Shown piece by piece: positions 10,366 through 59,926 of a stretch of DNA of 64,000 nt. Source of the DNA: Candidatus Latescibacterota bacterium. Lineage in GTDB: Bacteria; Latescibacterota; UBA2968; UBA8231. The position numbers and the translations under genes were made by a program. The stretch is taken from the NCBI GenBank assembly GCA_963422735.1, contig OY730476.1, positions 1,216,001 through 1,280,000 on the forward strand. The letters run 5' to 3'. How positions within the stretch are numbered: position 1 is the first letter of the stretch; each line of letters begins with the position of its first letter. Under the pieces are notes generated by a model. That model had not been told where the DNA came from. It saw only the letters and a list, made by a program, of their open reading frames with translations, and did no database searches.

Positions 10366-10366
10366 C

Positions 10367-36946: not shown

Positions 36947-36981
36947 ACGTATTATCCAGATGCAGAAGCAGCGCCGGGAAC

Positions 36982-38628: not shown

Positions 38629-39303
38629 CTAGCGGCCCTCCTGCTGGCCAGCTTGAAAGCGCACCAGCAGGGTATTGGCGAAGGCGTGGCAATACAGTTC
38701 CACGCTCTTGAAGACCTTTTCCGCACGACCGGAGAGATAGCGATGGAAGACGATGGTCGGAATAGCGACGATGAGACCACTGGCCGTAGTAATCAGGGCC
38801 TCGGAGATGCCGCTGGCCACGGCCGCCGGATCGCCGGCCCCGGCGCGGGCAATAGCGTCAAAGGCGTTGATCATACCCATGATCGTGCCCAACAGCCCCA
38901 TCAGCGGGGAAAGGACGCCAATGGTTCCGAGCGCGTTGAGCAGACGGCCCAGATACATCTCGCCGGCCTCCTCAGTGACCAAGATCAACTCCTGGCGCAT
39001 GTCCTCTAGGTCCGTGCGATTTTCCAGCACTAAGGTGTCGTAGCGCTTCACCAAGGCGGCGAAGATGAAGTTGAGCACACCGCTGCCCTGCCGGAATAGC
39101 TCGATGGCCCCACCTTCGCCTTCGCTTTTGAGCATGTCTTCTGCCTCGTTGAGCTGCTGTTCGGCCTCCTGTTCGCCCGGGACCATCAGCAGGCGCCACA
39201 GCCGTTCTATGATGATGGCTAGGGCGATCAACAAGCAAAGCAACATGGGCCACATCATCGGCCCGCCTTTGAAAAACTGGTCAACTAAAAAATTCTGCTC
39301 CAT
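38629..39303 (-). CDS. exbB: ExbB/TolQ/MotA proton-channel protein
   Basis: ATG at 39303 follows GGAGG. Motifs 'GGPMMWPM', 'SPLMGLLGTIMGMI' and 'GISEALITTASGL'. Confidence 0.93.
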   Translation of the reverse strand: MEQNFLVDQFFKGGPMMWPMLLCLLIALAIIIERLWRLLMVPGEQEAEQQLNEAEDMLKSEGEGGAIELFRQGSGVLNFIFAALVKRYDTLVLENRTDLEDMRQELILVTEEAGEMYLGRLLNALGTIGVLSPLMGLLGTIMGMINAFDAIARAGAGDPAAVASGISEALITTASGLIVAIPTIVFHRYLSGRAEKVFKSVELYCHAFANTLLVRFQAGQQEGR

Positions 39304-39350
39304 TACAACCTCCCATATTGTGTCCTGCTTTGCGTTGCGTTGAAAGCTCG

Positions 39351-42300
39351 CTAGAGCCGGTTTTCCACAATCCACGCCCGGTGCAGCTTGGCAAAACTGA
39401 CCACGTCCGCGTTTTCCGCCTTGTCCCCGCCCTTTTCTTCCACTACCTGATAGTTTTCCACGGCTTGCGACCACTGGCGCATGATTTCATAGACCAGCCC
39501 CAAGTTGCAGTACGCGGCCAATTCGGTATAAGTACCGGGGTACTCGCGGATAATCTCCTGTAAGGCTGGCACGGCCTGGTCGTAGTCTTTGGCCTCAAAC
39601 AGCTTCATGGCCTCGTTATAGCTAAAGCTGGCCTGGATCTCGCTTAGCTCTTCCACTAGGGCTGTGGCCCTCGACGCCTCCTCGGAGTCGGGATATAGCT
39701 TGAGTACTCGCTTGTAGGCCGCCATGGCCTCGTCATAAAACTGGATATTGTAGTAGTAGTCGCCGATGGTAAACTGCGCTTTGGGGGCGAATTCGCTTTG
39801 GGGGTAGTTGGCAACTAGGTTTTGCATCGCGCCTACTGCTTGCTCCATCTCCTCTTGTTCGACAAAGGACCAAGCCAACGCGTATTGCGCCGATCCGCCG
39901 TATCGGCCTTGGGGATATTTGGCTAAGAGCGCTTGATATGCAGTCGCGGCCTCGGCAAAGGCCTGCTCGTTGTAGTAGTTTTCGCCAATGAGGAAAAGCG
40001 CCTCTTCCTCGTATTGGGACTGGAGATAGCGCTCGACGAGCACAGCAAAAGCGGCCGCAGCCTCCTTGAACTGGGTCAGGGCCTGGAGACTGTGAGCCAG
40101 ATAGTACTGGCCGTGAATGCGGTTGGCATTGCGCGGATATTTTTTGACAAAAGCCCTGAAGCTCTCAGCGGCTGTGGCGTAGTCGCCGTAGCTGATTTCG
40201 GCAAAGCCCTTGGAGAAGGCCAAGTTGCCACTCTCGCCCGAATTCGGATAGCGTTTGAGACCTTGGGCAAAGATGCGGGCGGCTTCCTCGTATTTCTTCT
40301 GCTGTAGCAGCGCGTTGCCAATGATGGAATAGGCGCGTTCTTTGCGGTAGTACCCAGCTTGAGCGTCGTCTGCAAACTGCATGTCGAGGAGCCGGCGAGC
40401 GAATTTCTCGGCTTGAACGAAGTCCTGCTGATCGTAGTACAGCTCAGTCAGCAGCATGCTAAAGGTGGCCTGTTCTTGGGGGTCAGCCGACGCGGCAATG
40501 AGCTCTTGGTAGTATCTGGCCGCCTCTTCTTGCCGCCCCAAGCGGATCATGCCAGCCCCCAGCGTGCGGAAGGCACTGTCCTTTATCTGAGGCGCAGGAT
40601 CGCTTTCGAGCAGGGCCTTCATATCCTCCAGCGATGCCTCATAGCTTATGCGGGCCTGGGCCGTGTCGCCGACGGCGTCTTGCTGTTTGGCGACCTCGTA
40701 GTAAGCACCGCCGCGGGCCAGCAGCGAATTTTGCAGGATGTGCGTGGGCGGACTCAGCGCAATGGCCTGACCCCAAGAGTCGATCGCATCCGCGAAATTG
40801 TCCTCGGCAAAATGCACCCGAGCCATGGTGTAGTGCATCTGGCCTCTTAGAGTGTCGTCGTCGGCTCGATCCAAGGCGCGAGATAGGGCCTTGTGCGCCT
40901 TTTTGTACTCTTGTTTGCCCATGTACAGCTCGGCCAACTCGACCTGCATGGTCGGCCACTTGTCCCAACCCTCTTCTACCGTCTCATAGGCGGCGATGGC
41001 GCTCTCTGGATCCTGTAGGTGCTTGTAGGTGAGCCCCAACTCCATCCGCGTCGTATTGCGCAGTTCCGAATCCGAGAAGCGGTCGAGGAAGGACGTATAG
41101 ATAGCTTCGGCCCGTTTGAGATCGGATGCGGCATAGGCTATGCGGGCCAACTGCAAAAGGCCGTTAGGGGCCGCCGGATGGGCCGGATACTCATCGACTA
41201 ACCGCTGGTACAGCGGCTGCGCCGCTTCGTTTTTCTCGAGGAGTTGGTTGGCAAAACCGGCGTTAAAAAGCACATCCGCTATCAGGGAATTATCCTCGTG
41301 CTGGCTCAAGAGCTGATCGTAGCCCTTGAGCGCCTCGGCGATTTCCGCGTCCGCTCTAGCCGGATCCTCGCTGCGGATCTGCCGCCCGTATTCTTGGTGG
41401 CACTGGGCGATGCGAAAAAGAACCTTGTAGCGGTTAAAGCCGATGCGCTGGGCCACATCGCCGTAGGCATTGATATATATCTCGTATTCTTGTGCCGACT
41501 TAAGGTATTCGTCTTGGTCGAAAAGCATCAGGGCGACCGTTAGCTGCGTGCGGGCTTGAAAGAGCTTGTCCTCGACCTTTTCGATGGCATCCTTGTACGC
41601 GGCGATGGCCGCGGTCGTGCCCTGCTCCTTCTGCACCAACTCGGCGGTGCGGATATAGCTGTTTTGCACCAAGACCGGCTCAGCCGCGTATTCAGCCGGG
41701 AGTACGGCATAGGCGGCGAGGGCCTTTTCGACCTTGCCGTTGCGTGCGTAAATATCGCCCTTTTTCAGGTGGGCCTTGGCGACTAGTTCGCGCGCTGTCT
41801 CCTTGACCAAGCCTTTGAGCTTGAGGGTGGTCATCTCGATGATTTCTTCCTCGGTCATCTGCGCGAAGTCGTAGCGGGCGATGAGGCGGTCGAGAAAATT
41901 CAGCGCATCTTCGTACTGCCCGAGCTTGTCGTAGCTCTCGGCGATCTGGAAGAGCGAGCGGTCGGCATTAGAGCCTCTGGGGGCCAAGATCAACACCTGC
42001 TTGAAGCCGGCGATGGCCTCCTCGTAGCGTTCCAATTCAAAATAGGACCACGCCCGGTCGTAGTGAACGGACGCCTCGTAGAGGCTGTGGGGGAAGCTGT
42101 GTAGCAGCGCGTCCCCCTCCTCAATGACCTGATCGTAATCCTTGAGCTGGTAACTCGTCTGGATCATCTGGTACTGGGCCATCACTCGGGTGCGGTCATC
42201 AACGTGCTCGTCCACGGCTAGGCTGCGGAAGTGGTCGCGGCTCTTATTGAGGTCTTGCAGTGCCTCCTCGTAGCGAGCGTCGGCCTCGGCCTCCTTTTTC

Positions 42301-42623
42301 TCTGAGCGCAAAAACTGCGAGCGCTGCAATTTTTCGAGACCTAGCTTGTTGTAGGTATTGCCTAGCTGGTAGGTAGCACCCACGCGCACCGGCAGAATGA
42401 ACTCGTCAACCGCTACGGTTACATCCTCCACGTTGATCATGGAGTTGCTCTCGGTGGAGAGAATGACCTCATAGCGCTCAATGGCTTTGTCGTAGGCCCC
42501 CAACGCATAGAGCTTCTGACCTTCCTCAAAGCGGTCTTGCAATTCCACCGGCGAGAAGAAGCGCGTGCTCAGGCTGGCGGCCACGCCGACCGCTGCGACC
42601 AGTAGCAGGTTTACCAGAATCAT
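39351..42623 (-). CDS. Large periplasmic TPR protein (BamD/CpoB-type repeats)
   Basis: 1090 aa with a hydrophobic N-terminus. Repeated 'A...Y..L...YP.S...A' motifs. Confidence 0.88.
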   Translation of the reverse strand: MILVNLLLVAAVGVAASLSTRFFSPVELQDRFEEGQKLYALGAYDKAIERYEVILSTESNSMINVEDVTVAVDEFILPVRVGATYQLGNTYNKLGLEKLQRSQFLRSEKKEAEADARYEEALQDLNKSRDHFRSLAVDEHVDDRTRVMAQYQMIQTSYQLKDYDQVIEEGDALLHSFPHSLYEASVHYDRAWSYFELERYEEAIAGFKQVLILAPRGSNADRSLFQIAESYDKLGQYEDALNFLDRLIARYDFAQMTEEEIIEMTTLKLKGLVKETARELVAKAHLKKGDIYARNGKVEKALAAYAVLPAEYAAEPVLVQNSYIRTAELVQKEQGTTAAIAAYKDAIEKVEDKLFQARTQLTVALMLFDQDEYLKSAQEYEIYINAYGDVAQRIGFNRYKVLFRIAQCHQEYGRQIRSEDPARADAEIAEALKGYDQLLSQHEDNSLIADVLFNAGFANQLLEKNEAAQPLYQRLVDEYPAHPAAPNGLLQLARIAYAASDLKRAEAIYTSFLDRFSDSELRNTTRMELGLTYKHLQDPESAIAAYETVEEGWDKWPTMQVELAELYMGKQEYKKAHKALSRALDRADDDTLRGQMHYTMARVHFAEDNFADAIDSWGQAIALSPPTHILQNSLLARGGAYYEVAKQQDAVGDTAQARISYEASLEDMKALLESDPAPQIKDSAFRTLGAGMIRLGRQEEAARYYQELIAASADPQEQATFSMLLTELYYDQQDFVQAEKFARRLLDMQFADDAQAGYYRKERAYSIIGNALLQQKKYEEAARIFAQGLKRYPNSGESGNLAFSKGFAEISYGDYATAAESFRAFVKKYPRNANRIHGQYYLAHSLQALTQFKEAAAAFAVLVERYLQSQYEEEALFLIGENYYNEQAFAEAATAYQALLAKYPQGRYGGSAQYALAWSFVEQEEMEQAVGAMQNLVANYPQSEFAPKAQFTIGDYYYNIQFYDEAMAAYKRVLKLYPDSEEASRATALVEELSEIQASFSYNEAMKLFEAKDYDQAVPALQEIIREYPGTYTELAAYCNLGLVYEIMRQWSQAVENYQVVEEKGGDKAENADVVSFAKLHRAWIVENRL

Positions 42624-42640: not shown

Positions 42641-45559
42641 CTAGAACCCGGCCACAATATCAAAGAAAAGGCGCGAGTTGTCGAAGCTATCGGAAGCGCG
42701 AGTGGCATCGTCGTACTCCCGGCTAGTTCTGATAAAGCCGAACTGGGAGGCGAGGTTGTAGCCGTAGTGATCCGAGCGGTTGCTCATCATCAGTACCAGC
42801 GTCCACTCCTTAAAATCGTTGCGCTGGTCCACCCGGTCCAAGCTCGTGTGCTGCCAGAAAGGGAAGCCCTGAAATCCGAGTTGCAGATTGGACTTGGTCG
42901 TCAGGTCGAAACGGGTCCTGATGATCGGTGCGTAAATCGAGAAAGAGCGAATGCTGCCGTCGCCAGTGGCGTCTTCGAGTACACTCGAATGCTCGCGCAA
43001 CAACAGGTGCTTGAACATCGGGCGGATGTTCAGGTTGCCGGCGTTGATCGTATAGTCGAGCCGGTTGACCATCGCAAAGGTCGAGAGCACACCGGCTTCC
43101 TGTTGGGTACCGTCGTCGAACTCGTCCTCGGCTTGGCTGTTGCGGATCCACTGGACGCTGTTGATGACGTTGAGATTGGAAAACTGCTTAAAGGCCGAGC
43201 TGATGAACAAGGTATTGACCAAGCTATTGCGCATGTTCAGCGGATCGACATCCGGCGGGAAAATCTGGGAATTGAGATCCCGCGCCTCAATCATCGGACC
43301 TTTCAAGTGTGGGACGGGGCTGGGTATTCGCTGGGCAAACCCCACATCTTCCCAGACGTACACATCGTCGCGAATATCGTCTTTGACCTGCTTGATGTCC
43401 TCGTTGATGCGAATTTTTCCCAGATAGGGCGAGATAAAGTTGTGCTCGTAGCGAGCGTAGATGGCCTTGGCCTCGCCGCCGCCGACCGGCTCCTTTATGG
43501 TGTAATAGCCTACAGAGGTCCATTTGCCCCAGCCCCCCAAGCCCTTCTTGGTGGCCACCAAGTGGCCCCCCCGGCGGTCCCGTGGGTAGGGATAGTCGGG
43601 CAGCGCGTCGTTTTCGCGGTAATCGACTATGCCGTTGTTGTTGAAGTCGATGCCGTAGATGAAATCCGGTGGATCGGCGTCGTAAAAGAGGATCGGCTCA
43701 GTCCAGTCGGGAATGCCGTTGAAATTCTGGTCGCTGTCCGGGATTAGGTCATTGTTTTCGTCTAGTCCGGGGAAAATGCCCGAATCCGACTTCTCCGCAC
43801 TAGGCAACTCGTTGAGCATCTCGTCTGGCCACTGGTCGTTGTCGTCATTATCGGTCATGACGGACATTTCCTGCATCTGGGGACACACGAAGCAATTGTC
43901 GCTAAAGAAGGCTACGCCGCCGCGGTCGCTGTCGTAGTTGCCGCTGTAATCCGGGTCTAGGTTGAAAATTTCGCCACCGATCTCGATCGGGCCTACTTCC
44001 TTTTGGGCCGTGAGGAAATAGCCGAGGGCCCGCTTGTCAAAACGCTTGCCGGCATTGCTGCCCACTGGGAAGAGGAAGTACTGGGGATTGGCAACCAACT
44101 CGCCCTTTACTTTTAGCCCTTTGAGGCTTAAGTCCCAGTCCAACCCGTAGAGTGCCTGACCGGTGGGGATGCCGTAGTCGAACTCGACCACCTTGCGGCC
44201 CGAGTCGCTGCCATCGGAGCGCAGGACGGTATAGCCCACCCGGGTCGGATTGAGCAGATCCCACTTGTATTGCAAAAACGGCGAAGCCTGGGTAGTGCCC
44301 GGTTCTGGCACCACCGGCCACTGATTGAAGGAGTCGGGATTTTCTGCTAGCACATCTTCGAGCGGTTTGACCGCGTCGTCGCCTTTCAGCCCGGTAAAAG
44401 GATTGACGTACTTGCTGCCGCCTGGAGCGTACGCGTCGTCCCCATCGGCCACTTTGTCCACGTTTTTTTGGTGGACTCGCTGTTCGAAGAACAAGTGCTG
44501 TTGGCGCACCAAAATGCGATAGTCGCCCTCGACATCGGCCAAGAAGCGCACGGACTTCATCGTCAGCCCCGGAACAAGTTCGTTGGGATCTGCCGAGTAC
44601 GCCGCGTCATCCGGGAGGTTGAATCGCGGCATTTGGAAGCGGAAGACCACCTGGTCGCCGCCGGCTATCGTCAGCCCGCTCTCGGCCCCGCCAACCGGAT
44701 CAACCATCTTCAGGCTCGAGTCGTACTCGGAATCTCCTTCAATGCTGGTCAGGCGCACCCGCTGTCCCTGTGACTCGCCAATGATCACCACATCTACGTC
44801 ATAGACGGTGGCCACCCGGCCTATCTCGTCGGGCGAATCGTCTTCGATAATGACTTCAATAAAAGAGGGCGGCAGCATGCTGTAGGGAGTATCGCCCTTG
44901 AGAAAGGAGCCGTTCTCGTCGGCGGTATTGGCCATGTGCTGATTGAAGTACGTGGCACCCATGCGCAGCACGTTGCCCAGCTTAGTCTCCCAGTGGCCGC
45001 CAAAGATCAACACCGGCGAGGTCTCCCTAGTCGCTTTGAAAGTCGAAAACTTGGCGGCGTTCAACAGGTCGCCGCCTTGGCTCAGCATCAAGGTGAACTT
45101 GTTGTCCGAGGAAGCACCGTCGAGCAAAATGCCAAAGAAGCGCGGGTCGCTAAAGGTCAGATCCGAAAACTTGGCGCGGATGTCCTCGCCCAAGGTCACT
45201 CGGTAGTTCCAGCCCTTGTAGGAGTCGTTGAGCATCACCAAGTTGGCGAACCACCCCAAGTACTGGGCCGTTCGGGTGTTGATATTACTTTCCCCAGGAC
45301 GGGAAAATTCCCAAGTGAAGACATTGAACCCGCGCGACAAGTAATTGCCTAAGCGGTCGTAGCGATTGCGTGCGTTGATCACCGAAGGATAGGGATCGTA
45401 CTCCTTGCGCCCATAGTTCAAATAAGGTTCGGGATGGCCGAGGTTGAGGAAATCCCGGTTGCGCAGAAAGGTCTGCGCTTCGGCTTCGGCGCCCAGCATT
45501 CCCAACCCAACAAACGCTAGTAGCGCGGTCCTCACCAGGCTTTTTCTCGCATTACTCAT
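42641..45559 (-). CDS. Uncharacterised ~970-aa secreted protein, probable outer-membrane beta-barrel with Asp-rich Ca-binding-like loops (paralog 1)
   Basis: Signal peptide ending 'AEAEAQ'. C-terminal 'LFFDIVAGF' resembles a beta-signal. Loops 'DNDDNDQWPDE', 'GLDENND' and 'GIDFNNNG'. Confidence 0.75.
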   Translation of the reverse strand: MSNARKSLVRTALLAFVGLGMLGAEAEAQTFLRNRDFLNLGHPEPYLNYGRKEYDPYPSVINARNRYDRLGNYLSRGFNVFTWEFSRPGESNINTRTAQYLGWFANLVMLNDSYKGWNYRVTLGEDIRAKFSDLTFSDPRFFGILLDGASSDNKFTLMLSQGGDLLNAAKFSTFKATRETSPVLIFGGHWETKLGNVLRMGATYFNQHMANTADENGSFLKGDTPYSMLPPSFIEVIIEDDSPDEIGRVATVYDVDVVIIGESQGQRVRLTSIEGDSEYDSSLKMVDPVGGAESGLTIAGGDQVVFRFQMPRFNLPDDAAYSADPNELVPGLTMKSVRFLADVEGDYRILVRQQHLFFEQRVHQKNVDKVADGDDAYAPGGSKYVNPFTGLKGDDAVKPLEDVLAENPDSFNQWPVVPEPGTTQASPFLQYKWDLLNPTRVGYTVLRSDGSDSGRKVVEFDYGIPTGQALYGLDWDLSLKGLKVKGELVANPQYFLFPVGSNAGKRFDKRALGYFLTAQKEVGPIEIGGEIFNLDPDYSGNYDSDRGGVAFFSDNCFVCPQMQEMSVMTDNDDNDQWPDEMLNELPSAEKSDSGIFPGLDENNDLIPDSDQNFNGIPDWTEPILFYDADPPDFIYGIDFNNNGIVDYRENDALPDYPYPRDRRGGHLVATKKGLGGWGKWTSVGYYTIKEPVGGGEAKAIYARYEHNFISPYLGKIRINEDIKQVKDDIRDDVYVWEDVGFAQRIPSPVPHLKGPMIEARDLNSQIFPPDVDPLNMRNSLVNTLFISSAFKQFSNLNVINSVQWIRNSQAEDEFDDGTQQEAGVLSTFAMVNRLDYTINAGNLNIRPMFKHLLLREHSSVLEDATGDGSIRSFSIYAPIIRTRFDLTTKSNLQLGFQGFPFWQHTSLDRVDQRNDFKEWTLVLMMSNRSDHYGYNLASQFGFIRTSREYDDATRASDSFDNSRLFFDIVAGF

Positions 45560-45610
45560 GGCAGCTATCCTCATTCAGTATAGAGATTTCGTCTTCAGTC
45601 GCATTCCAAC

Positions 45611-46471
45611 TCAGCGCTGGCGATAACCAACGCTGAACCGATGTACACCTCCATAGCCGGACAGGTGCAGCGGATAGGAATAAGCATAATCGAAATGCCA
45701 TTGCTTATAGTTGTGGCCAAGGCCCACGTTGAGCTCTCTGTCATCAAAACCCGAACCAACCGCCGCCCCTCCCATGCGGAACCGGGCTCGGTTGAGGCTC
45801 ACTGTCCGCGTCTCGAACCCCACCCTGAACTCAGTTTGTCCATCGCGGCGCTCAATGTCGAACAGGACTTCCCGCCCCGCCAAGTTGAGCAAGGCCGCTG
45901 CGACCAAGGCCGGCTTTTCTTCGCCTGCGGCTTGGCCACCTGCTGCGATATTGGCACCGTTTAAGCCTTTGGCGACCAAACCCAAGCGCAGGTACGCTCG
46001 CGGGTGTATGAAGCCCACTTCCCAAGTCGCCCCTACATCCAAGTGCCAAGCCCGGTGCGACAGATCGCCAGCCTTCCAAGCGCTGGTGCGCAAGCCGCCG
46101 CCTAAGGCAAAGCGCTCGTGCAACGGCCGCCCATAGCCCAAGGCAATCACTTCTTCGCGCCAGCCATCGGCACCGAGAAACGATAGGCCCATTTGCAAAC
46201 CGCCGCCTCGCAAGGGGCCGGTTACCGACAAACCGCTTAGGGCTGGACTTTGGTCCAACCCGGGATAGAGCAACGCGTGCGTCGTTCCAGCCTGCCATTT
46301 TTGCTGCTGGGCGTTGCCGGCCGGATTGTACCAAACGGCCTCAGCCGTTTGAATGCTGGCGGCGAAAGCCCCGCCCAATGCCGTGCTCTGGGCCCCCCGT
46401 GCCGCAAATTCAAAAGCGGCTCCGACCGGGGGCACAAAAGCCAGCAATAGGACGCTAGTACGCCACCACAA
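45611..46471 (-). CDS. PorV/PorP(SprF)-like small outer-membrane beta-barrel
   Basis: Signal peptide, then 'GAQSTALGGAF...AVWYNPAG' (a FadL/PorV-type N-terminus). C-terminal 'FDYAYSYP...GGVHRFSVGYR'. Confidence 0.72.
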   Translation of the reverse strand: MWWRTSVLLLAFVPPVGAAFEFAARGAQSTALGGAFAASIQTAEAVWYNPAGNAQQQKWQAGTTHALLYPGLDQSPALSGLSVTGPLRGGGLQMGLSFLGADGWREEVIALGYGRPLHERFALGGGLRTSAWKAGDLSHRAWHLDVGATWEVGFIHPRAYLRLGLVAKGLNGANIAAGGQAAGEEKPALVAAALLNLAGREVLFDIERRDGQTEFRVGFETRTVSLNRARFRMGGAAVGSGFDDRELNVGLGHNYKQWHFDYAYSYPLHLSGYGGVHRFSVGYRQR

Positions 46472-48113
46472 AAGTGCCTCGGCGCGCCTTGCCGCTTTCT
46501 TCTATTCTAACCTCGTACAGATAGAGCCCCGGCTCGACAACGCGACCGCTCCCATCGCGACCGTCCCACTCAAACTGATAGGTCCGGGCACTTCCGGTCT
46601 GCGCCAACTGGCGAATCGGCCGACCGGTCAAGTTGTAAATTTTTAGCACGACTTCCCGGCCCTCTTCGATGTTGCCGACGACGAAGACAAAGCGCGCATA
46701 CTCGTCCGCAAACGGAGAGAACGGGCGCGGCTGCACCTGCACCTCGCCCAAAAGCTGCAACGGCGTTCCCCCAGCCAGTACCGTCCAAGTGGCACCCGGC
46801 ATTTCCCGCCCCTGCTGCCAGTTGACGTAGCCGTCTCTGTCGCCTTGGGCCTTGTTGCCGGCTTCGAAGCGCATGGCGGTCTTGTCGCGCACAAAGAGCG
46901 CCTGTCCCTCAATTTCGACGGTCGCCATCGCGTTGATTTGCTCGCTAGGTACAAGCTCTATCAGCATCCCCTCCCGATCCGGCGTCGGACCCCAAGTATA
47001 GCCTTCTGTGGACACGAGTTCTCGACCATCGACGCGCACGGCTGTTACGCTGAGCAAGGGGCCTTGTACGCGCAAGAGATCGACCCCGTAGTCATCGACG
47101 CCAGCCGCGATTTCCACTCGGTAGATCAACGTTGCTTCCTCGCCCTTGCGCAGCGAATCGGATGCGACCACCTCCGCCATGAGCTGTTGGGCGACCAAGA
47201 CTGGATCGTAGTCAATGGCGATGCGCTCGAGCGCCGGGCTGACAAAGGGGGCCGAGTTCGTCAGGCGGGCCCGGTACGCCAACCGCGCGACCGGCTCGTC
47301 CCCGCTGTAGAAAAATTCCCCGTCCGTGTGTGCCGCCAAGCTTCCCCAAGGCACTTCTGCTCCCTCTGCGGCGGTTCCACGCACCTGCAATTCAATGCCC
47401 GTGCGCTCCGTGCGCTCTACTTGCCAGCGTATCTGCCCCACGTTGACCGGGGTAGGCGGGGCGAAGCTATCCTCTATGAAGCCTTCGCTAACGTAGCCCG
47501 CGCCGAACACCTCGATTTCCCCGATGGCGACCCAGTTGCTGCGGTCTTGGCGGATCAGCGTCAGCCGCACGAAGCGACCCTCTCGCGGGATCGCCTCACC
47601 GCGCTCGTCGGTTATGGCCCAAGTAGAATCTGCACTCGTATCTACGTTGAGGACGAAATTGTCCGGCTGTTCCGCCAACAGGTGCCAGACTTGCGGCGCT
47701 GCTTGGGTGGCTGTTTCAAGCCTGTACCCACGCACGAAATACTCGGGCTGGCTCAGCGCTGTCTCGCCGGCTAGCACCCGCACCCGCTTGATCGCCCGGT
47801 CCAGCCCGAGATCGACGGTAAACTGCTTGTCGAACACGTGATTGGTCCCCGAAATCCACTCGCTCCGCACGAGATCAATCGCGCCGTCGGTTAGGGGCAC
47901 AGGCTTGTCGAAATCGTCTATCACCGATCGTCCTAAGGCCACGTTTACATCCTCGTCCAACTGTGCCAGAATGACGAGGCTATCTGGATGCACCCGTACT
48001 CCTCGGGTCGTTCCCAAGGCAAATGTTTCGACCGCGTCCACTACCCAAGTCTTTAACTCAGCACGGCACGGACTGAATTCAAGCAAGAGCAAAAGTGCGC
48101 CCAGCCTCAGCAC
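46455..48113 (-). CDS. Secreted protein with a discoidin-like domain and a C-terminal FlgD-Ig/T9SS-CTD-like domain
   Basis: 'FTVDLG...GRFVRLTL...IGEIEVFG'. C-terminal 'PRPFSP...LKIYNLTGRPIRQL...WDGRDGSGRVVEPGLYLY...GTFVVAY'. Confidence 0.78.
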   Translation of the reverse strand: MLRLGALLLLLEFSPCRAELKTWVVDAVETFALGTTRGVRVHPDSLVILAQLDEDVNVALGRSVIDDFDKPVPLTDGAIDLVRSEWISGTNHVFDKQFTVDLGLDRAIKRVRVLAGETALSQPEYFVRGYRLETATQAAPQVWHLLAEQPDNFVLNVDTSADSTWAITDERGEAIPREGRFVRLTLIRQDRSNWVAIGEIEVFGAGYVSEGFIEDSFAPPTPVNVGQIRWQVERTERTGIELQVRGTAAEGAEVPWGSLAAHTDGEFFYSGDEPVARLAYRARLTNSAPFVSPALERIAIDYDPVLVAQQLMAEVVASDSLRKGEEATLIYRVEIAAGVDDYGVDLLRVQGPLLSVTAVRVDGRELVSTEGYTWGPTPDREGMLIELVPSEQINAMATVEIEGQALFVRDKTAMRFEAGNKAQGDRDGYVNWQQGREMPGATWTVLAGGTPLQLLGEVQVQPRPFSPFADEYARFVFVVGNIEEGREVVLKIYNLTGRPIRQLAQTGSARTYQFEWDGRDGSGRVVEPGLYLYEVRIEESGKARRGTFVVAY

Positions 48114-48114
48114 T

Positions 48115-48771
48115 TCAGAATAGCAGTTTCTGCGTCAGGCTGGTCACCACGGCAATGGCGAGAGCCTCCTCCAACTCCCTAGAGTTGAAGGTCATGACAA
48201 TGCCGGCATCCACTGGGCTTTTCTTGCTCACTTTGCCGGTTTTGAGATCCTTAACTGACACCTCGACCTGCACTCGTTGCGTTTGCGGGGAGAATACTTT
48301 GCGCACTCGCTGACTGGAAAGCAGAGCCGTACCGCTAATTTCCAAGTCGGCCTCGTCCGAGTCCGCTGACACCACCGCGAAGGGATTGTTCACTTGCCGC
48401 ACGCTGTCTTCGTCTAGCACCTCGACCCGATCCGTCTGCGTGAAAATCCGCACCTTGTCCCTGCGGAGTTCGCGCAACAAGGCCCCAGACAAATCCTCAA
48501 TGCGCGAAGGCCGAGTAATCTGCACCAAGCGATTTCCAGAGGTGGCGAGGGCATTAGTAACGTACTGGGTTCCTTGGCCACTAGCCGAATTGGCGGTCCT
48601 CGGATCGACCACGTTAGCCTTGCTCTCGACCGGGAATTCCTTGACGTATATTTTGACTGGCATCGACGGCGGGTTGGGCAAACTAGTGTCCTTGAGTGCC
48701 TCGTATCTCAAAGTACAGGCCATCGCGCCGCCTAGTAGCATCATCCCGAGGTATTTGACCATCTTTTTCAT
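48115..48771 (-). CDS. Uncharacterised lipoprotein
   Basis: Lipobox in 'MKKMVKYLGMMLLGGAMAC'. TAATG overlap with the upstream gene. Confidence 0.8.
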   Translation of the reverse strand: MKKMVKYLGMMLLGGAMACTLRYEALKDTSLPNPPSMPVKIYVKEFPVESKANVVDPRTANSASGQGTQYVTNALATSGNRLVQITRPSRIEDLSGALLRELRRDKVRIFTQTDRVEVLDEDSVRQVNNPFAVVSADSDEADLEISGTALLSSQRVRKVFSPQTQRVQVEVSVKDLKTGKVSKKSPVDAGIVMTFNSRELEEALAIAVVTSLTQKLLF

Positions 48772-49538
48772 TACTTATTCTCCACCCAACGCACTCCGTG
48801 ATCGACATTGAAGTCGAATTTCAAGTCGGTAAACTCCACCGGATTGCCGTATCCTACTTGAAACCGATCAAAGGCCAGAATGAAGTCGTTTACTTCGAGG
48901 GTGAATGACTTAGTCTCTACGGGCAGCGGTGGAAAGGTCAGCTTGCCGGCGTATCTGGAGCCTTTGCGTACGGGCTTTTCCCGGTGGTACTCGCTCTTCT
49001 CCCAAATCGGGTTGCGGTCCAAGCTGGCGTGATAGCGCACATTGCCTTCTTGCCCCCCCCACTTCAAATAGGAATAGTCGAAGAACTCGTCTTTGTCGTA
49101 CCAATTTCCCGTCCCTTGGCGGCAGAGCAATCGGCTGCCGTCGTCCAAGCGGATAATGGCCTGCGTGGGATCCAACTCCACCCGCTCTCGAGTGCGGTTG
49201 ATCACCGTCACTTCAAAAACGGTCCATAAGGGCGGCGTATAGTCCAAGCCGGGAATTTCGACTCCCGTGAGCGTATAGGGCGTGAAGCGGGGGTCGTATT
49301 CGGCGTCGAGCATGGCATCGTCGTAGAACTTGACCTTGACTTGCACCCCTTGCTCGCTCCACACGACCGAGCTATCGATCGGATCGATGTAATAGGTCTC
49401 CCCATCGGGCAGTTCCGGCTCCAACTCGATAACGTACTCCCGCTGCACATGCGATTCGAGGGATTTGAGAGTAGCGCACCCCCCGGCGGCCAACGCCAAG
49501 CACAGGAGGACGTGAATGTATTTTGCGATTGGTCTCAT
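48771..49538 (-). CDS. Uncharacterised lipoprotein, paralog of 36982-37734
   Basis: Lipobox 'AAGGC'. Motif 'YTPPLWTVFEVTVINRT...LDP'. Confidence 0.8.
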   Translation of the reverse strand: MRPIAKYIHVLLCLALAAGGCATLKSLESHVQREYVIELEPELPDGETYYIDPIDSSVVWSEQGVQVKVKFYDDAMLDAEYDPRFTPYTLTGVEIPGLDYTPPLWTVFEVTVINRTRERVELDPTQAIIRLDDGSRLLCRQGTGNWYDKDEFFDYSYLKWGGQEGNVRYHASLDRNPIWEKSEYHREKPVRKGSRYAGKLTFPPLPVETKSFTLEVNDFILAFDRFQVGYGNPVEFTDLKFDFNVDHGVRWVENK

Positions 49539-49543
49539 AGGCC

Positions 49544-52501
49544 TTAGAAGGGGGATATCAGCTCTACGAAGAGAATGCCTTGCTTGGAGTCGGGCCGCCC
49601 TGCATGGCTAAAGTCCCGCCGCGTACGCTGGTAGCCGAAGAATATCGAATTGTCGCGGATGCCAAAGTAGTCTGCGGTGATGCTCAGCATGGCCAGATAA
49701 TCGGTCTGGCTGTACGTCCCATCACCAAAGGCGCGATCCCAGTGCTTAAACGGCAGCAAGGGCAGCCCCTGCACGCCTAGCTGAAAGCTGGTCTTGGGCG
49801 TGAGCTTGTACTGCCCCATTACAATGGGGATGAAGTCGCTGTACGATTTCCGCGGCGTATCTTCGCTGTCAACCTGCTCAACGATCGTCCGATGCTTTAA
49901 CTTAGGCGTGACGCTGAAGGCACCCCAGCTATGGGTATAGTCGATCTTGTTGACAACGGAAAAACGCGAGCGCACATCTTGGGGCTGCAACAGCCCGCTG
50001 CCGTCTTCAAGCTCAATTTCGGCTTGGTTGTTGCGCTGCCACAGGAAGCCATTTTCAATGTTGAAGCCGCGCAAGCCCTGATAGGTGCTGTCAAAAAAGA
50101 GGAGATGCACAAAGCTGTCGCGCATCAACAGCTCGTCCGGCGTTGCCGGCCGCCAAAAGCCCGCGCGCTCGGGCGGGCCGTCCGGCTCGTTAAACCAGTT
50201 GATGACTTCGATATCGTCGATGGGCACTTGGTACACGTAGGTGTGATCCGGGGTGTCGTCTTTGACCTGCTTGGCGTCGAAGTTGATCCTCAATGCACCA
50301 ACGCCGCGCTTTTCCAACTCATAGGCGTAGCGGAAGTAAAGCCCTTCGGACTTGCCCGGGCCGGCGATCTGACGGTTGTCGTAGCGACCTATGCTGACGA
50401 ATTTACCCAAGCGCCCCAAGCGGTCGTAGCGGAGGAAGATGTGCTGGCCCTTTTGGTCGCGTGGATAGGGGTAGTCCGGCTTATCGTCGTTCTCGCGGAA
50501 GTCGGGTACGTTGTTGTTGTTGAAGTCGATGCCATAGACAAATTCGGGCGGCTCTGAATCATAGGTCAGAAAAGCCTCTTCCCAGTCGACGATGAAATTC
50601 TCGTTGCGGTCCATATCCGGGATGTTATCGACGTTCTCGTCGAGACCCGGATACACTTGGGCACTGGGAAAGCCCGGATACAGCGTACGCGGCTCGGCGG
50701 TAGCCGTATCGTTAGTGTGTTCGTCGGGGAAGCCGTCGTGATCGTCGTTGTCCTCGTGGAGGGGGAACTCCTCGGTGACCGTAGAGATTCTCTCGCCGGG
50801 AGCAGGCTGCCCATCGTAGTGGAAGGCCATGCCGCCTCGGTAGCTATCGTACCCGCCGCCGTAGTCAGGCTCCATGCGGTATATCTCGCCGCCCAGTGCT
50901 AGGCCGCCGGCTATATCCTTGACGCCCTTGACCCACCACGCAAAGGCGCGCTCGCTGCTGCGCTCGCCCTCGTTATCGCCGACCGGGAACATAAAATTCT
51001 GCAGGTTGTGCGCCACTTCGCCGCTGATATCTAGCCCTACCAAATCGACCTGATAGTTGACCGAGGCCAAACTCTGCCCGGTGGGAATGCCGTAATCAAA
51101 GGAGACCATCCGCCGATTTGCACCGCTGCGGTCGCTGCCATCGGCGCGGACAACGGTGTAGTAGATCTCCTCGTCTTCGTCTGTGTACCACTTGAACGGA
51201 CGCCGGATGGCCCGCTCGTTACCTTTAGTGATGGGGGCTGGCCAAGCTGCTTCGGTGATCGTCGCGTCGCCCCGACGACTGATATTGAAGAAGTCGTGGG
51301 TCTGGCTGACGCCGACCCGGTAGTCGCCGGCCACATCGGCGACAAAGCGCACCGAGCGCACCGTCGCGTCCGGCGGGAGGACGAAGGTGTACACCACCGG
51401 CACCTTGCCCTCGGCCTCGCGCCCGCCACCGGCGCGGACGGCACCGCCCTCGGGCGGCCCGGCTTCTAGCAGCGGGTCGTAGTCTGGGTCGTCGTCGAGG
51501 CTGGTCAGGCGCACCGGCTCTGTGTTGCGCTCGCCCTCGATGACGATGTCCACGCCATAAACAATGGCATTGGCCCGGGCGTCGTCGGGCGAGTCGTCGG
51601 CCACGAAGACGCGGATGGTCTTGGGGCCGAGCATCTCATAGGGCAAATCGCCGCGCCAAGCGCTGGTGCGCGACAGGGCCGGCGAGGCCATAATCTGGTT
51701 GATTAGCGTCCCGCCAACGCTGGCGAAGCGACCTACTTCGTGCTGATAGTGGCCGCCAAAGAGCAGCACTGGTGAGTTGTCCCAAGCGTCGTCGCCTTCT
51801 TGGCCAAACGCCCATTTGGAGAATAGCTGGGCACCGGAGTGATCGCCGCCGCGCGAGTAGAGCAGAGTCGCCCGGTCGCGCTCCTTGTAGTTGATGTCCA
51901 TGCGCAGCACGTTCAGCTTACTGCTGGTCAGCGTGAGCGGCGTGAAAATGGTGCGCACATCCGATCTTGTGGTCAGATGGCCCACAGTAGCGGTCCAGTG
52001 CAAATCCTTGTGAGTATAGTGGCCGACCCGGAACGACCGATACTTGTGGTCGATATAGCTATACGCACTAAAATCGTTGCCACTGCGCGACTCTTCTATC
52101 GTCAGGAGCCGCTGATAGCCGCCGCCCATGTAGTTGCCCATCCGGTCCCAACCCACGTTGCGGGTACTTGGCGAGCGGCCCGACGGGGCGGCCCAAGCAA
52201 CCGTCTCGCGGTAGTAAGCAATGTACTTTTCGTCGGCGTAGTTGAGATAGGGGACGTTGACTGCGGCGTTGAGGAAAGCCCTCTCCAGCCCTCGGTCATA
52301 GCGGTCTTGGGGACCGCGCAGAAAGGGGGGGCGCTTTTTCCACGGGGGATCTTTGGGCGTACCGGGAGTAGGGTCGTAATAGGGCAGCGGACCGGCGGAT
52401 TCGGGGTGGCGCTGCGCCTCCGCCGGCGCGGACAGGGCAACGCAAACTACTGATAATATCCCCACCCAGCACTTGGACACGACACTAATAAAAAACAGCA
52501 T
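49544..52501 (-). CDS. Uncharacterised ~985-aa secreted protein, probable outer-membrane beta-barrel (paralog 2)
   Basis: Signal peptide ending 'PAEAQ'. C-terminal 'ILFVELISPF'. Its motifs are colinear with those of 42641-45559. Confidence 0.75.
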   Translation of the reverse strand: MLFFISVVSKCWVGILSVVCVALSAPAEAQRHPESAGPLPYYDPTPGTPKDPPWKKRPPFLRGPQDRYDRGLERAFLNAAVNVPYLNYADEKYIAYYRETVAWAAPSGRSPSTRNVGWDRMGNYMGGGYQRLLTIEESRSGNDFSAYSYIDHKYRSFRVGHYTHKDLHWTATVGHLTTRSDVRTIFTPLTLTSSKLNVLRMDINYKERDRATLLYSRGGDHSGAQLFSKWAFGQEGDDAWDNSPVLLFGGHYQHEVGRFASVGGTLINQIMASPALSRTSAWRGDLPYEMLGPKTIRVFVADDSPDDARANAIVYGVDIVIEGERNTEPVRLTSLDDDPDYDPLLEAGPPEGGAVRAGGGREAEGKVPVVYTFVLPPDATVRSVRFVADVAGDYRVGVSQTHDFFNISRRGDATITEAAWPAPITKGNERAIRRPFKWYTDEDEEIYYTVVRADGSDRSGANRRMVSFDYGIPTGQSLASVNYQVDLVGLDISGEVAHNLQNFMFPVGDNEGERSSERAFAWWVKGVKDIAGGLALGGEIYRMEPDYGGGYDSYRGGMAFHYDGQPAPGERISTVTEEFPLHEDNDDHDGFPDEHTNDTATAEPRTLYPGFPSAQVYPGLDENVDNIPDMDRNENFIVDWEEAFLTYDSEPPEFVYGIDFNNNNVPDFRENDDKPDYPYPRDQKGQHIFLRYDRLGRLGKFVSIGRYDNRQIAGPGKSEGLYFRYAYELEKRGVGALRINFDAKQVKDDTPDHTYVYQVPIDDIEVINWFNEPDGPPERAGFWRPATPDELLMRDSFVHLLFFDSTYQGLRGFNIENGFLWQRNNQAEIELEDGSGLLQPQDVRSRFSVVNKIDYTHSWGAFSVTPKLKHRTIVEQVDSEDTPRKSYSDFIPIVMGQYKLTPKTSFQLGVQGLPLLPFKHWDRAFGDGTYSQTDYLAMLSITADYFGIRDNSIFFGYQRTRRDFSHAGRPDSKQGILFVELISPF

Positions 52502-52653: not shown

Positions 52654-53610
52654 CTACTGGACGAAGGTCTCCTTTACTCGGCCCCAAGAATCTTCTTCGA
52701 CCGCGGTCCCTGTCGGGCCAGCCGGCGTATCCACAAAGACCCAGTTGGCAAACTCGGACATGTTGCCGCCCGCCCATGCCACGCACTGAATCTGGCCGCC
52801 ATAACCATCTTCGCCGTCGGAATCAACCGCCAGCCAAGTAAAGCCCATCTCAGAGCCAGCTGTGGGGGCTTCAAAGAGGTTACCGTTGCGCAGGAAGGTA
52901 TCCCATGGCAGCATGCCTTCAATCACGTAGTCGGCGTCGCCAGCGTCGCCAAATTCGTCGCCAGCGTCGCGGAAGCCGTATTCAAACCCCTCAAGCGCGT
53001 CGGGGTCGTGGACATCCACGCGCTGATTATCCACGGTGGTGATTAAACAGACAGACAGCTCGTTCGAGCCAAAGGGCAGGGCCATGAAGTTGACCACGTT
53101 CAGATTGACGTAGCTAGCCGGGGCCGGGTCGCCGCACGCGCAATCCTCGTTGTTCAGGTCGAGGTAGAGAGACATGCTGTCGCGCTCCCACCAAGCCCGG
53201 GCCTCACCGCCGCCCTCGGTGTCGCGGACATTATCGCTAACCTCGGTGATGTAGTACAGGGCATCGTCGTCCCAAGCCTGCAAGATCACCGAAGAAAAAT
53301 CGGCGTCCGTGCGCCCCTCGCCGGCTACTTCGGTCTCGCCGTTTTCATTGAGCTGGTTGGTACTGACTTCGCTGGACTCCTGCTCAATACTGCGCCAACC
53401 ATACTCTTGACCATCGAGCTGAATCTGGCTCGGCGAGCAGGGAAATTCTAGCGCACCAGCCCACTCGTCGGCAACTGTTGCGCGGTCGCCGTCGAGCGTG
53501 GGGGCTTGGGTGAACTTGGGCAAGTCGAAGTAGCGCACTGGCGGCTGGGCACTGGCCAGCGTAGTAAAGCAAAGGGCCGCGATAGCGGCCAAAAGAGCCA
53601 ACTTCTTCAT
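52654..53610 (-). CDS. Secreted acidic CBM9/DOMON-like sugar-binding protein with a C-terminal 'TAVEEDSWGRVK' tail
   Basis: Signal peptide ending 'ASAQ'. 'APTLDG...EW', 'AWDDDALYY...VSD', 'DSMSLYLD' and 'YVIEGMLPW'. RBS AAGGAG. Confidence 0.78.
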   Translation of the reverse strand: MKKLALLAAIAALCFTTLASAQPPVRYFDLPKFTQAPTLDGDRATVADEWAGALEFPCSPSQIQLDGQEYGWRSIEQESSEVSTNQLNENGETEVAGEGRTDADFSSVILQAWDDDALYYITEVSDNVRDTEGGGEARAWWERDSMSLYLDLNNEDCACGDPAPASYVNLNVVNFMALPFGSNELSVCLITTVDNQRVDVHDPDALEGFEYGFRDAGDEFGDAGDADYVIEGMLPWDTFLRNGNLFEAPTAGSEMGFTWLAVDSDGEDGYGGQIQCVAWAGGNMSEFANWVFVDTPAGPTGTAVEEDSWGRVKETFVQ

Positions 53611-53661: not shown

Positions 53662-53690
53662 ATAATATACCCCTGCCAAAGGGTTGTCAA
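53662..53690 (-). promoter_or_regulatory. Near-consensus sigma70 promoter of the CBM9-like gene
   Basis: Minus-strand TTGACA (53690-53685), a 17-bp spacer and TATTAT (53667-53662), in an AT-rich divergent region. Confidence 0.72.
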
Positions 53691-58035: not shown

Positions 58036-58036
58036 T

Positions 58037-59716: not shown

Positions 59717-59826
59717 TTATTGAGGTTACGCATAGTTCTCGTTTAGGGAGTTAATGCGAGGGTGCCAAGACGCAAGGGAGCGGGGTGGTAGGGTCGAGTA
59801 GGGTATTTCTTTTAGGTTTATCGACC

Positions 59827-59867
59827 AAGGAACACGAAGGGTTTCCTGAGTATTCTTCGTGTTCCTT
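59827..59867. repeat. Perfect 13-bp inverted repeat between convergent genes (terminator- or REP-like)
   Basis: AAGGAACACGAAG, a 15-nt spacer and CTTCGTGTTCCTT. Confidence 0.7.
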
Positions 59868-59926
59868 CAGGCCCTTGGTGGATCGCACAAGGCTCAAGGG
59901 CTGCGTAACGTCGGTTAATTATTGAA

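Follow-up and report, generated by a model that had tools for sequence, protein, structure and literature searches.

Evidence for a new family of large outer-membrane barrels encoded within a conserved envelope gene module of Latescibacterota and Gemmatimonadota

What two proteins of about 980 amino acids (aa) with no recognizable family contribute to the envelope of their host is the question raised by a locus of Candidatus Latescibacterota bacterium (assembly GCA_963422735.1, contig OY730476.1, positions 1,216,001 to 1,280,000 of the forward strand). This whole stretch of 64,000 nucleotides is the window analyzed here, and positions are counted from its first letter. The original prediction, made from the letters of the window, had described the products as paralogous, probable outer-membrane proteins with Asp-rich loops. 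The data obtained in this study give good support to the view that these proteins, here called bigA and bigB, form a new family of large outer-membrane barrels, itself a known kind of protein, and there is a fair chance that the gene module around them is a new kind of envelope machine. The two genes are long minus-strand open reading frames (ORFs), lying where they had been predicted:

42641..45574, minus strand: bigB, outer-membrane barrel protein, 977 aa from the first ATG; likely start at Met6 (45559), giving 972 aa
49544..52501, minus strand: bigA, paralogous outer-membrane barrel protein, 985 aa; 927 bits against the family hidden Markov model (HMM)

The start of bigB at Met6 (45559), which the original prediction had chosen, is probably correct, because Met6 is nearly invariant in the family alignment, the HMM aligns from residue 6, and the closest homologs (92 to 95% identical) are 972 to 974 aa long. 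When the two proteins were compared by BLASTP, 342 of 991 aligned positions were identical (35%, E 2e-155), and the alignment was colinear from residue 40 to the last residue, a likeness that at the sequence level is far beyond chance. The shared motifs on which the predicted paralogy had been based, namely PYLNY, DR(L/M)GNY, SPVL.FGGH, GD.PY.ML.P, DDSPD, SVRF.ADV.GDYR, FDYGIPTGQ, GGEI..PDY.G.YDS.RGG, PGLDEN, and YGIDFNNN...REND..PDYPYPRD, were all located inside this nearly full-length alignment. Among 503 six-frame ORFs in the window, only bigA and bigB were found by the family HMM. The signal peptides claimed for both could also be read from the sequences: each N terminus has a basic n-region, a hydrophobic core, and a type-I-like end at AEA|Q, and the orthologs of both proteins show an equivalent segment. 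Likewise, both proteins end, as had been noted, in Phe after alternating hydrophobic residues, which fits the C-terminal beta-signal of outer-membrane barrels; as the original prediction proposed, the two would be inserted by BAM. Right behind the signal peptide, bigA has a conserved tail rich in Pro (residues about 30 to 75), shared with its orthologs, that is absent from bigB; as a matter of speculation, it might be a periplasmic docking peptide for the tetratricopeptide repeat (TPR) protein encoded in the same operon.

The barrel nature of these proteins was examined on an AlphaFold2 model of bigB built from a 76-sequence alignment. The model was confident, with a mean predicted local distance difference test score (pLDDT) of 85.7 and a predicted TM-score (pTM) of 0.84, and DSSP assigned about 23 long antiparallel strands, arranged as hairpins, between residues 112 and 976, with short strands before them at residues 69 to 99. 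Across the 76 family members, invariant turns of 2 to 3 residues (120-121, 155-157, 200-202, 485-486, 528-529, 716-718, 846-847, and 937-938 of bigB) alternated strictly with variable loops (167-187, 215-468, 503-509, 540-666, 733-782, 815-827, 864-873, and 955-963), a pattern consistent only with residues 895 to 913 forming one kinked strand. Two of the variable loops, L4 and L6, are very large insertions, and the second has an equivalent in bigA:

44171..44932, minus strand: insertion L4, bigB residues 215-468, with a beta-sandwich at 238-360 and a variable helical part at 361-447 (DSSP)
43577..43957, minus strand: insertion L6, bigB residues 540-666, Asp/Asn rich, with EF-hand-like loops at residues 615 and 643
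50456..50872, minus strand: Asp/Asn-rich equivalent in bigA, residues about 544-682, placed by alignment to bigB

Because tight turns are periplasmic under the usual rule for outer-membrane barrels, and the last strand of bigB ends on the turn side, the tight turns are assigned to the periplasm, and L4 and L6 would be extracellular or folded into the lumen from outside. The strand number that follows from the model would be about 24 (23 long strands plus one short N-terminal strand), with 26 possible; this count, the positions of the insertions, and any lumen derive from DSSP and loop statistics, not from coordinates, which is one of the points to be held against the functional reading weighed below. 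The strand-rich segment at residues 238 to 360 agrees with the inserted beta-sandwich that had been predicted. The length of L4 ranges from 145 to 265 across the family, and its helical part is occupied in 32% of members. A topology with an usher-like plug was considered and rejected, since an extracellular position of the beta-sandwich follows from the loop statistics. For bigA, a fold equivalent to that of bigB is expected from the 35% full-length identity.

When the bigB model was compared with the PDB using Foldseek, all of the matches listed at E ≤ 0.001 (44 counted) were outer-membrane barrels, with TM-scores (TMq) of 0.09 to 0.23. The kinds matched were SlpA, MtrB, LptD, TonB-dependent transporters, SprA, ushers, and porins. 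The best E values were obtained with SlpA (7e-10 to 1.5e-8), at TM-scores of only 0.16 to 0.18; the values were 4e-8 for MtrB, 3e-5 to 1e-3 for TonB-dependent transporters, and 5.5e-5 for SprA (TMq 0.22 to 0.23), while LptD gave a TMq of 0.13 to 0.17 and the ushers PapC and FimD a Foldseek probability of 0.95 to 0.98. SprA, the TonB-dependent transporters, and LptD, which had been named beforehand as the proteins to compare, were all matched as generic large barrels at low TM-scores. As judged from the model, the fold class is clear and a close structural relative in the PDB is absent. There is little doubt that bigA and bigB are paralogous, Sec-exported barrels of about 24 strands with two giant insertions on the outer or lumen side, and that they belong to a large family without a name.

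The claim that the proteins fall into no recognizable family also held. Neither bigA nor bigB was matched by any Pfam model even at E ≤ 10 or by any NCBIfam model at E ≤ 0.01, and the PDB sequences yielded no match for bigB and one chance-level match for bigA. A profile of 76 family sequences likewise found nothing meaningful among the PDB sequences, and no full-length match to a characterized family emerged from the Pfam, NCBIfam, and PDB searches. In particular, the TonB_dep_Rec, plug domain, Usher, and LptD/OstA models did not match either protein, nor did the SprA family model (Pfam, NCBIfam). All of the 30 protein-atlas clusters nearest to bigB are without a name; the nearest named cluster, “TonB-dependent receptor-like” DUF6029 (0.89), is to be taken as a lead only. 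The sole recurrent weak link to a known family among the relatives was Pfam SlpA_C (PF21620), the barrel of Deinococcus SlpA. This label was precomputed for 9 of the 74 homologs listed, and SlpA_C was matched at E ≤ 0.1 by 8 of 53 family members scanned (best E 2e-7); two homologs that were rescanned scored 22.7 and 25.1 bits over about 75 residues, against a gathering score of 35. An SLH domain was not matched in bigA or bigB, and the bigB model has no long helix before the barrel. Among open-access papers and preprints, no published description of the barrel family, of the module, of DUF4159, or of a type IX secretion system (T9SS) in these phyla was found.

Insertion L6 has almost no regular secondary structure, yet its block-mean pLDDT in the bigB model is 69 to 95. 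In the region aligned to bigB residues 570 to 666, Asp, Glu, and Asn account for 37% of residues, compared with 19% in the whole proteins (means of the 76 members), bearing out the Asp-rich character noted originally. L6 is also the best-conserved part of the family, with a majority-residue frequency of 0.54 compared with 0.37 to 0.46 in the strand blocks, and most of the near-invariant residues fall within it. Strict 12-residue EF-hand-type loops, D.[DN].[DN]G..D..[ED], occur twice in bigB, at residues 615 and 643; bigA has no strict loop and two relaxed ones, at residues 631 and 659. A strict loop is present in 53 of the 76 members, once in 35 of them and twice in 18, and is absent from the other 23. 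The stretch had been described as thrombospondin-3/EF-like, and this description stands only in part: the EF-hand-type loop pattern is present in both proteins, but the Pfam models TSP_3, EF-hand, and dockerin gave no match at E ≤ 10 in either. L6 is presumably stabilized by Ca2+.

The family is large. An exhaustive search matched 485 representative clusters at E ≤ 1e-3, a number that fell to 294 when the limit was 1e-10 and to 140 when it was 1e-30. Full-length matches were mostly about 850 to 1,050 aa long, and at least 632 members were confirmed from 660 pattern-matched genomic stretches (one genome per species). Fused or longer forms of the barrel were not found among 7,890 candidates of 1,711 to 4,885 aa, a negative that is weak evidence. 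The phyletic distribution, which the original prediction had proposed to chart, was narrow, with almost all members coming from Latescibacterota and Gemmatimonadota. The 64 loci kept for analysis were, by record title, Latescibacter* (42), Gemmatimonad* (14), Handelsmanbacteria (3), uncultured bacterium (3), Planctomycetota (1), and Zipacnadia (1), with up to four barrel loci on one chromosome. Within the data searched, the family very probably does not extend beyond Latescibacterota, Gemmatimonadota, and allied candidate phyla, and it is present in several copies per genome.

The barrel genes were single in 66 groups, paired in 8, and arranged in threes in 11. In a tree of 112 barrels, bigA and bigB fell into sister clades (support 1.0 each), with orthologs of both in the same loci. 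Tandem triples were of two independent types, in each of which every gene position formed its own clade (support 0.999 to 1.0); one type was seen in loci L025, L030, L032, L035, L037, L039-L041, and L044 and the other in L047-L049, L060, and L064. A fixed gene order maintained after repeated duplication suggests non-redundant subunits of one assembly; on the functional reading preferred below, bigA and bigB would be non-redundant partners that probably join in one hetero-oligomer. The pattern fits the heterodimer that the original prediction had tentatively raised and lends it indirect support.

To consider what such an assembly might do, the genes encoded with it are needed. bigA and bigB belong to a minus-strand operon whose genes abut or overlap, in the order CBM9-like, bigA, lipo255, lipo218, Ig552, PorV-like barrel, bigB, TPR, ExbB, ExbD, ExbD, p250, SurA-like, and p663. 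A gene for a DUF4159 protein is divergent from it. The features other than the two large barrels are as follows:

53662..53690, minus strand: sigma-70-like promoter match TTGACA-17-TATTAT (11/12) upstream of the first gene; a consensus match only
52654..53610, minus strand: CBM9-like secreted acidic protein, 318 aa, first gene; CBM9_1 38.3 bits, cut-off 23.4
48771..49538, minus strand: lipo255, lipoprotein and paralog of p250 (34% identity, E 4e-35), lipobox Cys conserved
48115..48771, minus strand: lipo218, lipoprotein of no known family
46455..48113, minus strand: Ig552, secreted protein, 552 aa, discoidin-like at ~98-186, with a C-terminal domain (CTD) of FlgD-Ig/T9SS-CTD type at ~463-552
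45611..46471, minus strand: small barrel, 286 aa, PorV/PorQ/PorP-like; PorV_fam 44.7 bits, cut-off 90
39351..42623, minus strand: giant TPR protein, 1,090 aa, with an N-terminal hydrophobic anchor or signal
38629..39474, minus strand: ExbB/TolQ-type proton channel; the listed ORF overlaps the end of the TPR gene
38191..38610, minus strand: ExbD/TolR-type protein 1
37766..38185, minus strand: ExbD/TolR-type protein 2
36982..37734, minus strand: p250, lipoprotein with an Ig-like beta-sandwich fold
35240..36985, minus strand: SurA-like protein, 581 aa, with two parvulin peptidyl-prolyl isomerase (PPIase) domains
33245..35236, minus strand: p663, polytopic inner-membrane protein, 663 aa, no known family, last operon gene
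55131..56348, plus strand: DUF4159 protein, divergent, with an N-terminal transmembrane helix, a Pro/Lys/Arg/Glu-rich linker, and a DUF4159 domain

ExbB and ExbD scored above their Pfam cut-offs; the true start of ExbB is probably internal to the listed ORF, its orthologs being about 240 aa long. Two pairs of operon genes are duplicates, the barrels bigA and bigB and the lipoproteins lipo255 and p250. The lipobox Cys is present in nearly all members of the p250 family, which is also unnamed, its 30 nearest protein-atlas clusters being without a name. p250 was considered as a candidate TonB and rejected, as it is a lipoprotein paralogous to lipo255 with an Ig-like beta-sandwich whose fold matches are weak (YjhA, E 5e-3; MPT63; ApaG). 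For p663, no Pfam, NCBIfam, or PDB match was obtained; a relationship to DUF6785, indicated by BLASTP at E 0.005 over 95 residues, was dropped at an hhalign probability of just 15%. p663 is 85 to 97% identical in loci where bigB is only 59 to 64% identical, an extreme degree of conservation for the last gene of the operon.

The order of the whole operon was kept in loci with orthologous barrels, down to a barrel identity of about 54 to 60%. When the 64 loci were searched with the window proteins (phmmer), relatives were recovered as listed here, the counts being lower bounds because many loci end at contig edges:

Ig552 relatives: 21/25 window-type loci, 26/39 other loci
TPR relatives: 20/25 window-type loci, 26/39 other loci
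p250 relatives: 24/25 window-type loci, 24/39 other loci
DUF4159 relatives: 12/25 window-type loci, 19/39 other loci
ExbB relatives: 18/25 window-type loci, 7/39 other loci
PPIase relatives: 17/25 window-type loci, 7/39 other loci
PorV-like barrel relatives: 21/25 window-type loci, 0/39 other loci
lipo218 relatives: 21/25 window-type loci, 0/39 other loci
CBM9-like relatives: 20/25 window-type loci, 1/39 other loci

Of the 70 barrel groups with upstream room, 40 had an Ig552-like gene immediately upstream, and of the 75 with downstream room, 40 had a TPR gene downstream. Seventy-three otherwise unlabelled neighbor ORFs from 16 diverse loci were scanned with Pfam, and DUF4159 was found in 12 of them, in 8 loci; DUF6785/DUF6784 membrane proteins, FG-GAP/ASPIC proteins, and TPR proteins were also recurrent. 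By gene content, the recurring module consists of a gene for a CTD protein, between one and three barrel genes, and genes for a giant TPR protein, a lipoprotein, and a DUF4159 protein; ExbBD and a PPIase may also be present. Some distant loci adjoin sulfatases, a GH67-like protein, PhyH, dehydrogenases, a hybrid two-component sensor, and a sigma-54 activator. In locus L003 (1956-2914), the CBM9-like gene was split into two ORFs of 151 and 174 aa, reflecting a frameshift or an assembly error.

Within the operon, Ig552 and the small PorV-like barrel were examined as a pair. The C-terminal domain of Ig552 was matched by Pfam FlgD_ig above its cut-off (30.6 bits, cut-off 27) and stayed below those of TIGR04183 Por_Secre_tail (18 bits, cut-off 23) and CHU_C (20.4 bits, cut-off 27); in the PDB, it was matched by FlgD Ig domains (E 3e-7) and by the CTD of PorU (6za2, E 0.0018). 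A profile of the PorV-like barrel returned only spurious matches to designed proteins among the PDB sequences. When the two proteins were co-folded in three runs, scores of 0.81, 0.80, and 0.75 were obtained, with 0.00 for the best of three controls. The mark applied to these scores is reached by 116 of 157 solved complexes and by 2 of 215 mismatched pairs, a calibration that is approximate here because custom alignments were used. The runs agreed in at least 90% of contacts, and the pLDDT of the partner was at least 81. On the Ig552 side, the predicted interface was confined to residues 463 to 552, with the last residue included; on the barrel side, it comprised seven periodic clusters (residues 19-22, 68-76, 99-106, 132-139, 175-183, 238-246, and 267-273), which are the loops of one face of the barrel. 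The PorV-like barrel is therefore predicted from the co-folding to bind the C-terminal domain of Ig552, as a carrier or an anchor. This gives indirect support to a translocon role for the large barrels, one of the options that the original prediction had raised. A comparable arrangement is described in a passage of PMC10994853, in which PorV carries T9SS substrates by binding their C-terminal domain through its loops.

A candidate for energy coupling was found in the DUF4159 proteins. In 22 of the 23 such proteins encoded in the loci, there is an N-terminal transmembrane segment, and a His lies within 17 of these 22 segments. The segment is followed by a linker with 23 to 36 Pro, Lys, Arg, or Glu per 70 residues and then by the DUF4159 domain. 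A His motif in the transmembrane segment is carried by TonB and TolA, and by this analogy, a DUF4159 protein built like TonB/TolA would be the likely coupler to ExbBD. DUF4159 proteins beside barrels were observed in loci L018, L025, L036, L038, L042, L048, L049, and L064, among others.

How these parts might work together can be stated in outline. We tentatively favor the reading, at somewhat less than an even chance, that the large barrels are the outer-membrane conduit or platform of a self-contained envelope machine that exports the co-encoded Ig552 for display at the cell surface. Ig552, which has a signal peptide in its sequence, would cross the inner membrane by Sec, after which the giant TPR scaffold and the SurA-like PPIase would handle it in the periplasm. 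Its C-terminal domain would then dock on the loops of the PorV-like barrel, as predicted by co-folding, and the carrier-cargo pair would pass through the large barrels or be handed over at them, the conserved Ca-type module and the beta-sandwich of the latter acting as an external cap or gate. ExbB-ExbD-ExbD would supply proton-motive energy, likely by way of the inner-membrane-anchored DUF4159 protein. This reading is favored because the barrel, its carrier barrel, the PPIase, the long TPR scaffold, and a proton-driven motor each have a parallel in the extended translocon of the T9SS of Bacteroidota, because the co-folding prediction for carrier and CTD passes strongly, because TPR scaffolds and SurA-type chaperones accompany export and assembly, not import, because the paralogs share a conserved outer module but the CTD proteins are variable, and because each locus encodes a complete envelope-spanning set.

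Several observations weigh against it, in addition to the indirect strand count and the approximate calibration given above. No component reached a curated T9SS threshold, the TPR protein, for example, scoring 106 bits against PorW/SprE with a cut-off of 250, and no SprA, GldK/L/M/N, PorU, or PorZ gene was found within the window. The PorV-like gene is confined to window-type loci, so the carrier step is not family-wide, and ExbBD was seen in few of the other loci within the 10 kb inspected. The co-folding score of carrier and CTD may reflect a likeness to solved PorV-CTD structures and not binding of these copies. The window's own DUF4159 protein has the transmembrane segment and the linker but no transmembrane His, and an aromatic last residue (F, Y, or W) is present in only 27 of the 76 family members, with Phe970 at least 90% conserved. 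Ig552 could also be secreted by a canonical T9SS encoded at another place in the genome. Finally, a dedicated translocon for each cargo, several times per genome, would be unusual for secretion pores and is more typical of uptake loci, and the sulfatase, GH67-like, dehydrogenase, hybrid sensor, and DUF6785 neighbors of some distant loci suggest nutrient utilization.

These last points lead to an alternative that is unlikely yet remains the strongest competitor, in which the barrels are gated channels for energized nutrient import and fill a SusC-type role in these phyla. Ig552, the CBM9-like protein, and the lipoproteins would be surface binding proteins, ExbBD would open the channel through DUF4159, and p663 or DUF6785 would take the substrate across the inner membrane. 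Such a function would fit the multiple loci within a genome and the separate partner proteins that go with each, the encoding of ExbB and ExbD in the operon, the TonB/TolA-like build of the DUF4159 proteins, the carbohydrate-binding-type domains of the partners (CBM9-like, discoidin-like), and the enzymes, regulators, and DUF6785/DUF6784 proteins near some distant loci, relatives of DUF6785 being found in 10 of the 64 loci; the “TonB-dependent receptor-like” atlas cluster is a lead in the same direction. However, no plug domain, TonB_dep_Rec match, or TonB C-terminal domain was found anywhere in the operon, and the extracellular L6 is the region most conserved across the paralogs, where divergence would be expected from loops that serve substrate-specific uptake. 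TPR scaffolds of giant size in the periplasm and SurA-like PPIases typically go with export or assembly, not with import; CTD docking on a carrier barrel, as predicted here, has no role in import; core-only loci exist with no transporter or catabolic gene nearby; and the p663-DUF6785 link is without support.

Two other explanations take up single features of the locus. It is rather improbable that the barrels are abundant SlpA-like scaffolds or porins, with metal-stabilized insertions filling their pores, that stabilize the envelope or anchor a surface layer of Ig552 type, possibly as hetero-trimers. SlpA chains were the best Foldseek matches, weak SlpA_C matches recur among the members, and the tandem paralogs stand in fixed order in sets of two or three; SlpA itself, in the sections of PMC9388160 that concern it, has insertions with metal sites lining the pore and forms trimers. 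On the other hand, the TM-scores to SlpA are low, bigA and bigB have no SlpA_C match and the two homologs that were rescanned stay under its cut-off, there is no SLH domain or coiled-coil stalk, and about 24 strands are counted compared with 28 to 30 in SlpA. A scaffold would also leave unexplained why a dedicated TPR protein, PPIase, ExbBD, and lipoprotein are encoded in each locus and why several full sets occur per genome. Export of an exopolysaccharide through the barrel, with a giant periplasmic TPR protein and with carbohydrate-binding-type proteins acting on the polymer, is less probable still. Polysaccharide exporters that combine TPR proteins with a barrel are known (AlgK/AlgE, BcsC, PgaA, and PelB), the 1,090-aa TPR gene is immediately downstream of bigB, a TPR gene follows the barrels in many of the groups, and CBM9-like and discoidin-like domains are found on the partners. 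Against this, neither the operon nor the 73 neighbor ORFs of 16 loci contained a glycosyltransferase, synthase, polymerase, or flippase, the known exopolysaccharide barrels have 16 to 18 strands rather than about 24, and several copies per genome would not be expected.

A more far-reaching form of the preferred export and display reading, which is somewhat doubtful, is that Latescibacterota and Gemmatimonadota possess an unrecognized system that draws on the proton-motive force for protein export and surface display. It would be functionally analogous to the T9SS but made from unrelated or very distantly related parts, with each of the several loci in a genome serving a CTD cargo of its own. 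A hetero-oligomer of barrels of about 24 strands, capped by the Ca-type module, would take the place of SprA, ExbB/ExbD with the TonB-like DUF4159 protein that of GldLM, and the 1,090-aa TPR protein that of SprE. If true, this would account for the way in which the many FlgD-Ig-type CTD proteins of these phyla arrive at the surface. There are only a few kinds of very large outer-membrane barrel (TonB-dependent transporters, LptD, ushers, MtrB, SlpA, and SprA), and each has defined a major envelope process. The present family comprises hundreds of clusters, is represented by a model in neither Pfam nor NCBIfam, lacks a close structural neighbor, and combines an unusual, highly conserved outer Ca-type module with a motor-containing gene set. 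Should it serve export, it would represent a new route of surface delivery in two widespread and poorly studied phyla; should it serve import, it would be a plug-less counterpart of TonB-dependent uptake. Under either reading, the set of parts is concrete and testable, and Gemmatimonadota has cultured members that would allow tests.

The remainder of the window contains several other groups of genes. A DUF6785 plus DUF6784 membrane protein (26959-28863, minus strand) adjoins a 1,583-aa ORF (22275-27026, minus strand) with matches to an FtsX-like permease and an M28 peptidase; elsewhere, DUF6785 proteins near barrels were seen in loci L025, L042, and L055. HEAT-repeat, FG-GAP/ASPIC-UnbV, and TPR proteins flank the operon (57217-64000, plus strand; 59927-61237, minus strand), and FG-GAP/ASPIC proteins also occur near barrels in L018, L055, and L061. 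Between ~18000 and ~22000, the G+C content is 0.48 to 0.53, compared with about 0.58 to 0.62 around it; this stretch, which includes a gene for a 616-aa N6/N4 DNA methylase (19828-21678), may be an acquired island. A set of genes for RND efflux (6064-13714, plus strand) consists of a gene for an HlyD-type membrane-fusion protein and, after it, two genes of the AcrB family. The preceding group (1148-6017, plus strand) encodes the membrane domain of an ABC transporter, a fusion of a subtilase with a DUF1611 P-loop domain, and a protein with a BtrH_N/C39-like peptidase fold, and may be a cluster for peptide maturation or export. Scans of the window for tRNA genes and with Rfam returned nothing.

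Compared with known systems, the large barrels share features with several and coincide with none. For LptD, there is no match of its models to bigA or bigB, and the TMq is low. TonB-dependent transporters, including SusC, resemble them as large gated outer-membrane barrels with ExbB/ExbD alongside, many loci, and adjoining genes for cognate surface proteins; in contrast, bigA and bigB have about 24 rather than 22 strands, lack an N-terminal plug and a TonB_dep_Rec match, and carry their large domains in extracellular loops and not at the N terminus, and their operon encodes no protein with a TonB C-terminal domain. In chaperone-usher pilus ushers, strands 6 and 7 are joined by a periplasmic turn that holds the plug. 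Two such ushers, PapC and FimD, are similar in their 24 strands, the number estimated here, in a beta-sandwich inserted after about six or seven strands, in Ig-like partners encoded nearby, in several loci per genome, and in the high Foldseek probability, but bigA and bigB have neither an Usher match in Pfam nor the N- and C-terminal periplasmic domains, and their insertion is on the extracellular side.

The SlpA proteins of Deinococcus-Thermus (PF21620; PDB 8ae1, 7zgx, and 8agd) are likewise very large single-chain outer-membrane barrels with a beta-signal. Their large insertions have acidic metal-binding sites, according to the sections of PMC9388160 on these proteins. They gave the best Foldseek E values, and PF21620 is the only Pfam family touched by relatives of bigA and bigB (8/53). 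They differ in the low TM-scores, in the SlpA_C match, SLH domain, and coiled coil that bigA and bigB lack, in their higher strand number, in the phyla in which they occur, and in having no multigene module. The T9SS (PDB 6h3i and 8gl8) differs in several respects. SprA has 36 strands and more than 2,000 residues, whereas bigA and bigB have about 24 strands and about 980 residues (TMq 0.22 to 0.23); none of the parts scored above a T9SS family cut-off; instead of GldL/GldM, the motor consists of ExbB/ExbD; the TPR protein is no lipoprotein; and several complete sets are present per genome. The extended translocon is described in part of PMC10994853 as consisting of SprA, PorV, PPI, SprE/PorW, and GldLM, and in the module described here, large barrels, a PorV-like barrel predicted to bind a CTD, a PPIase, a long TPR protein, and a motor of the ExbB/MotA class are likewise encoded together.

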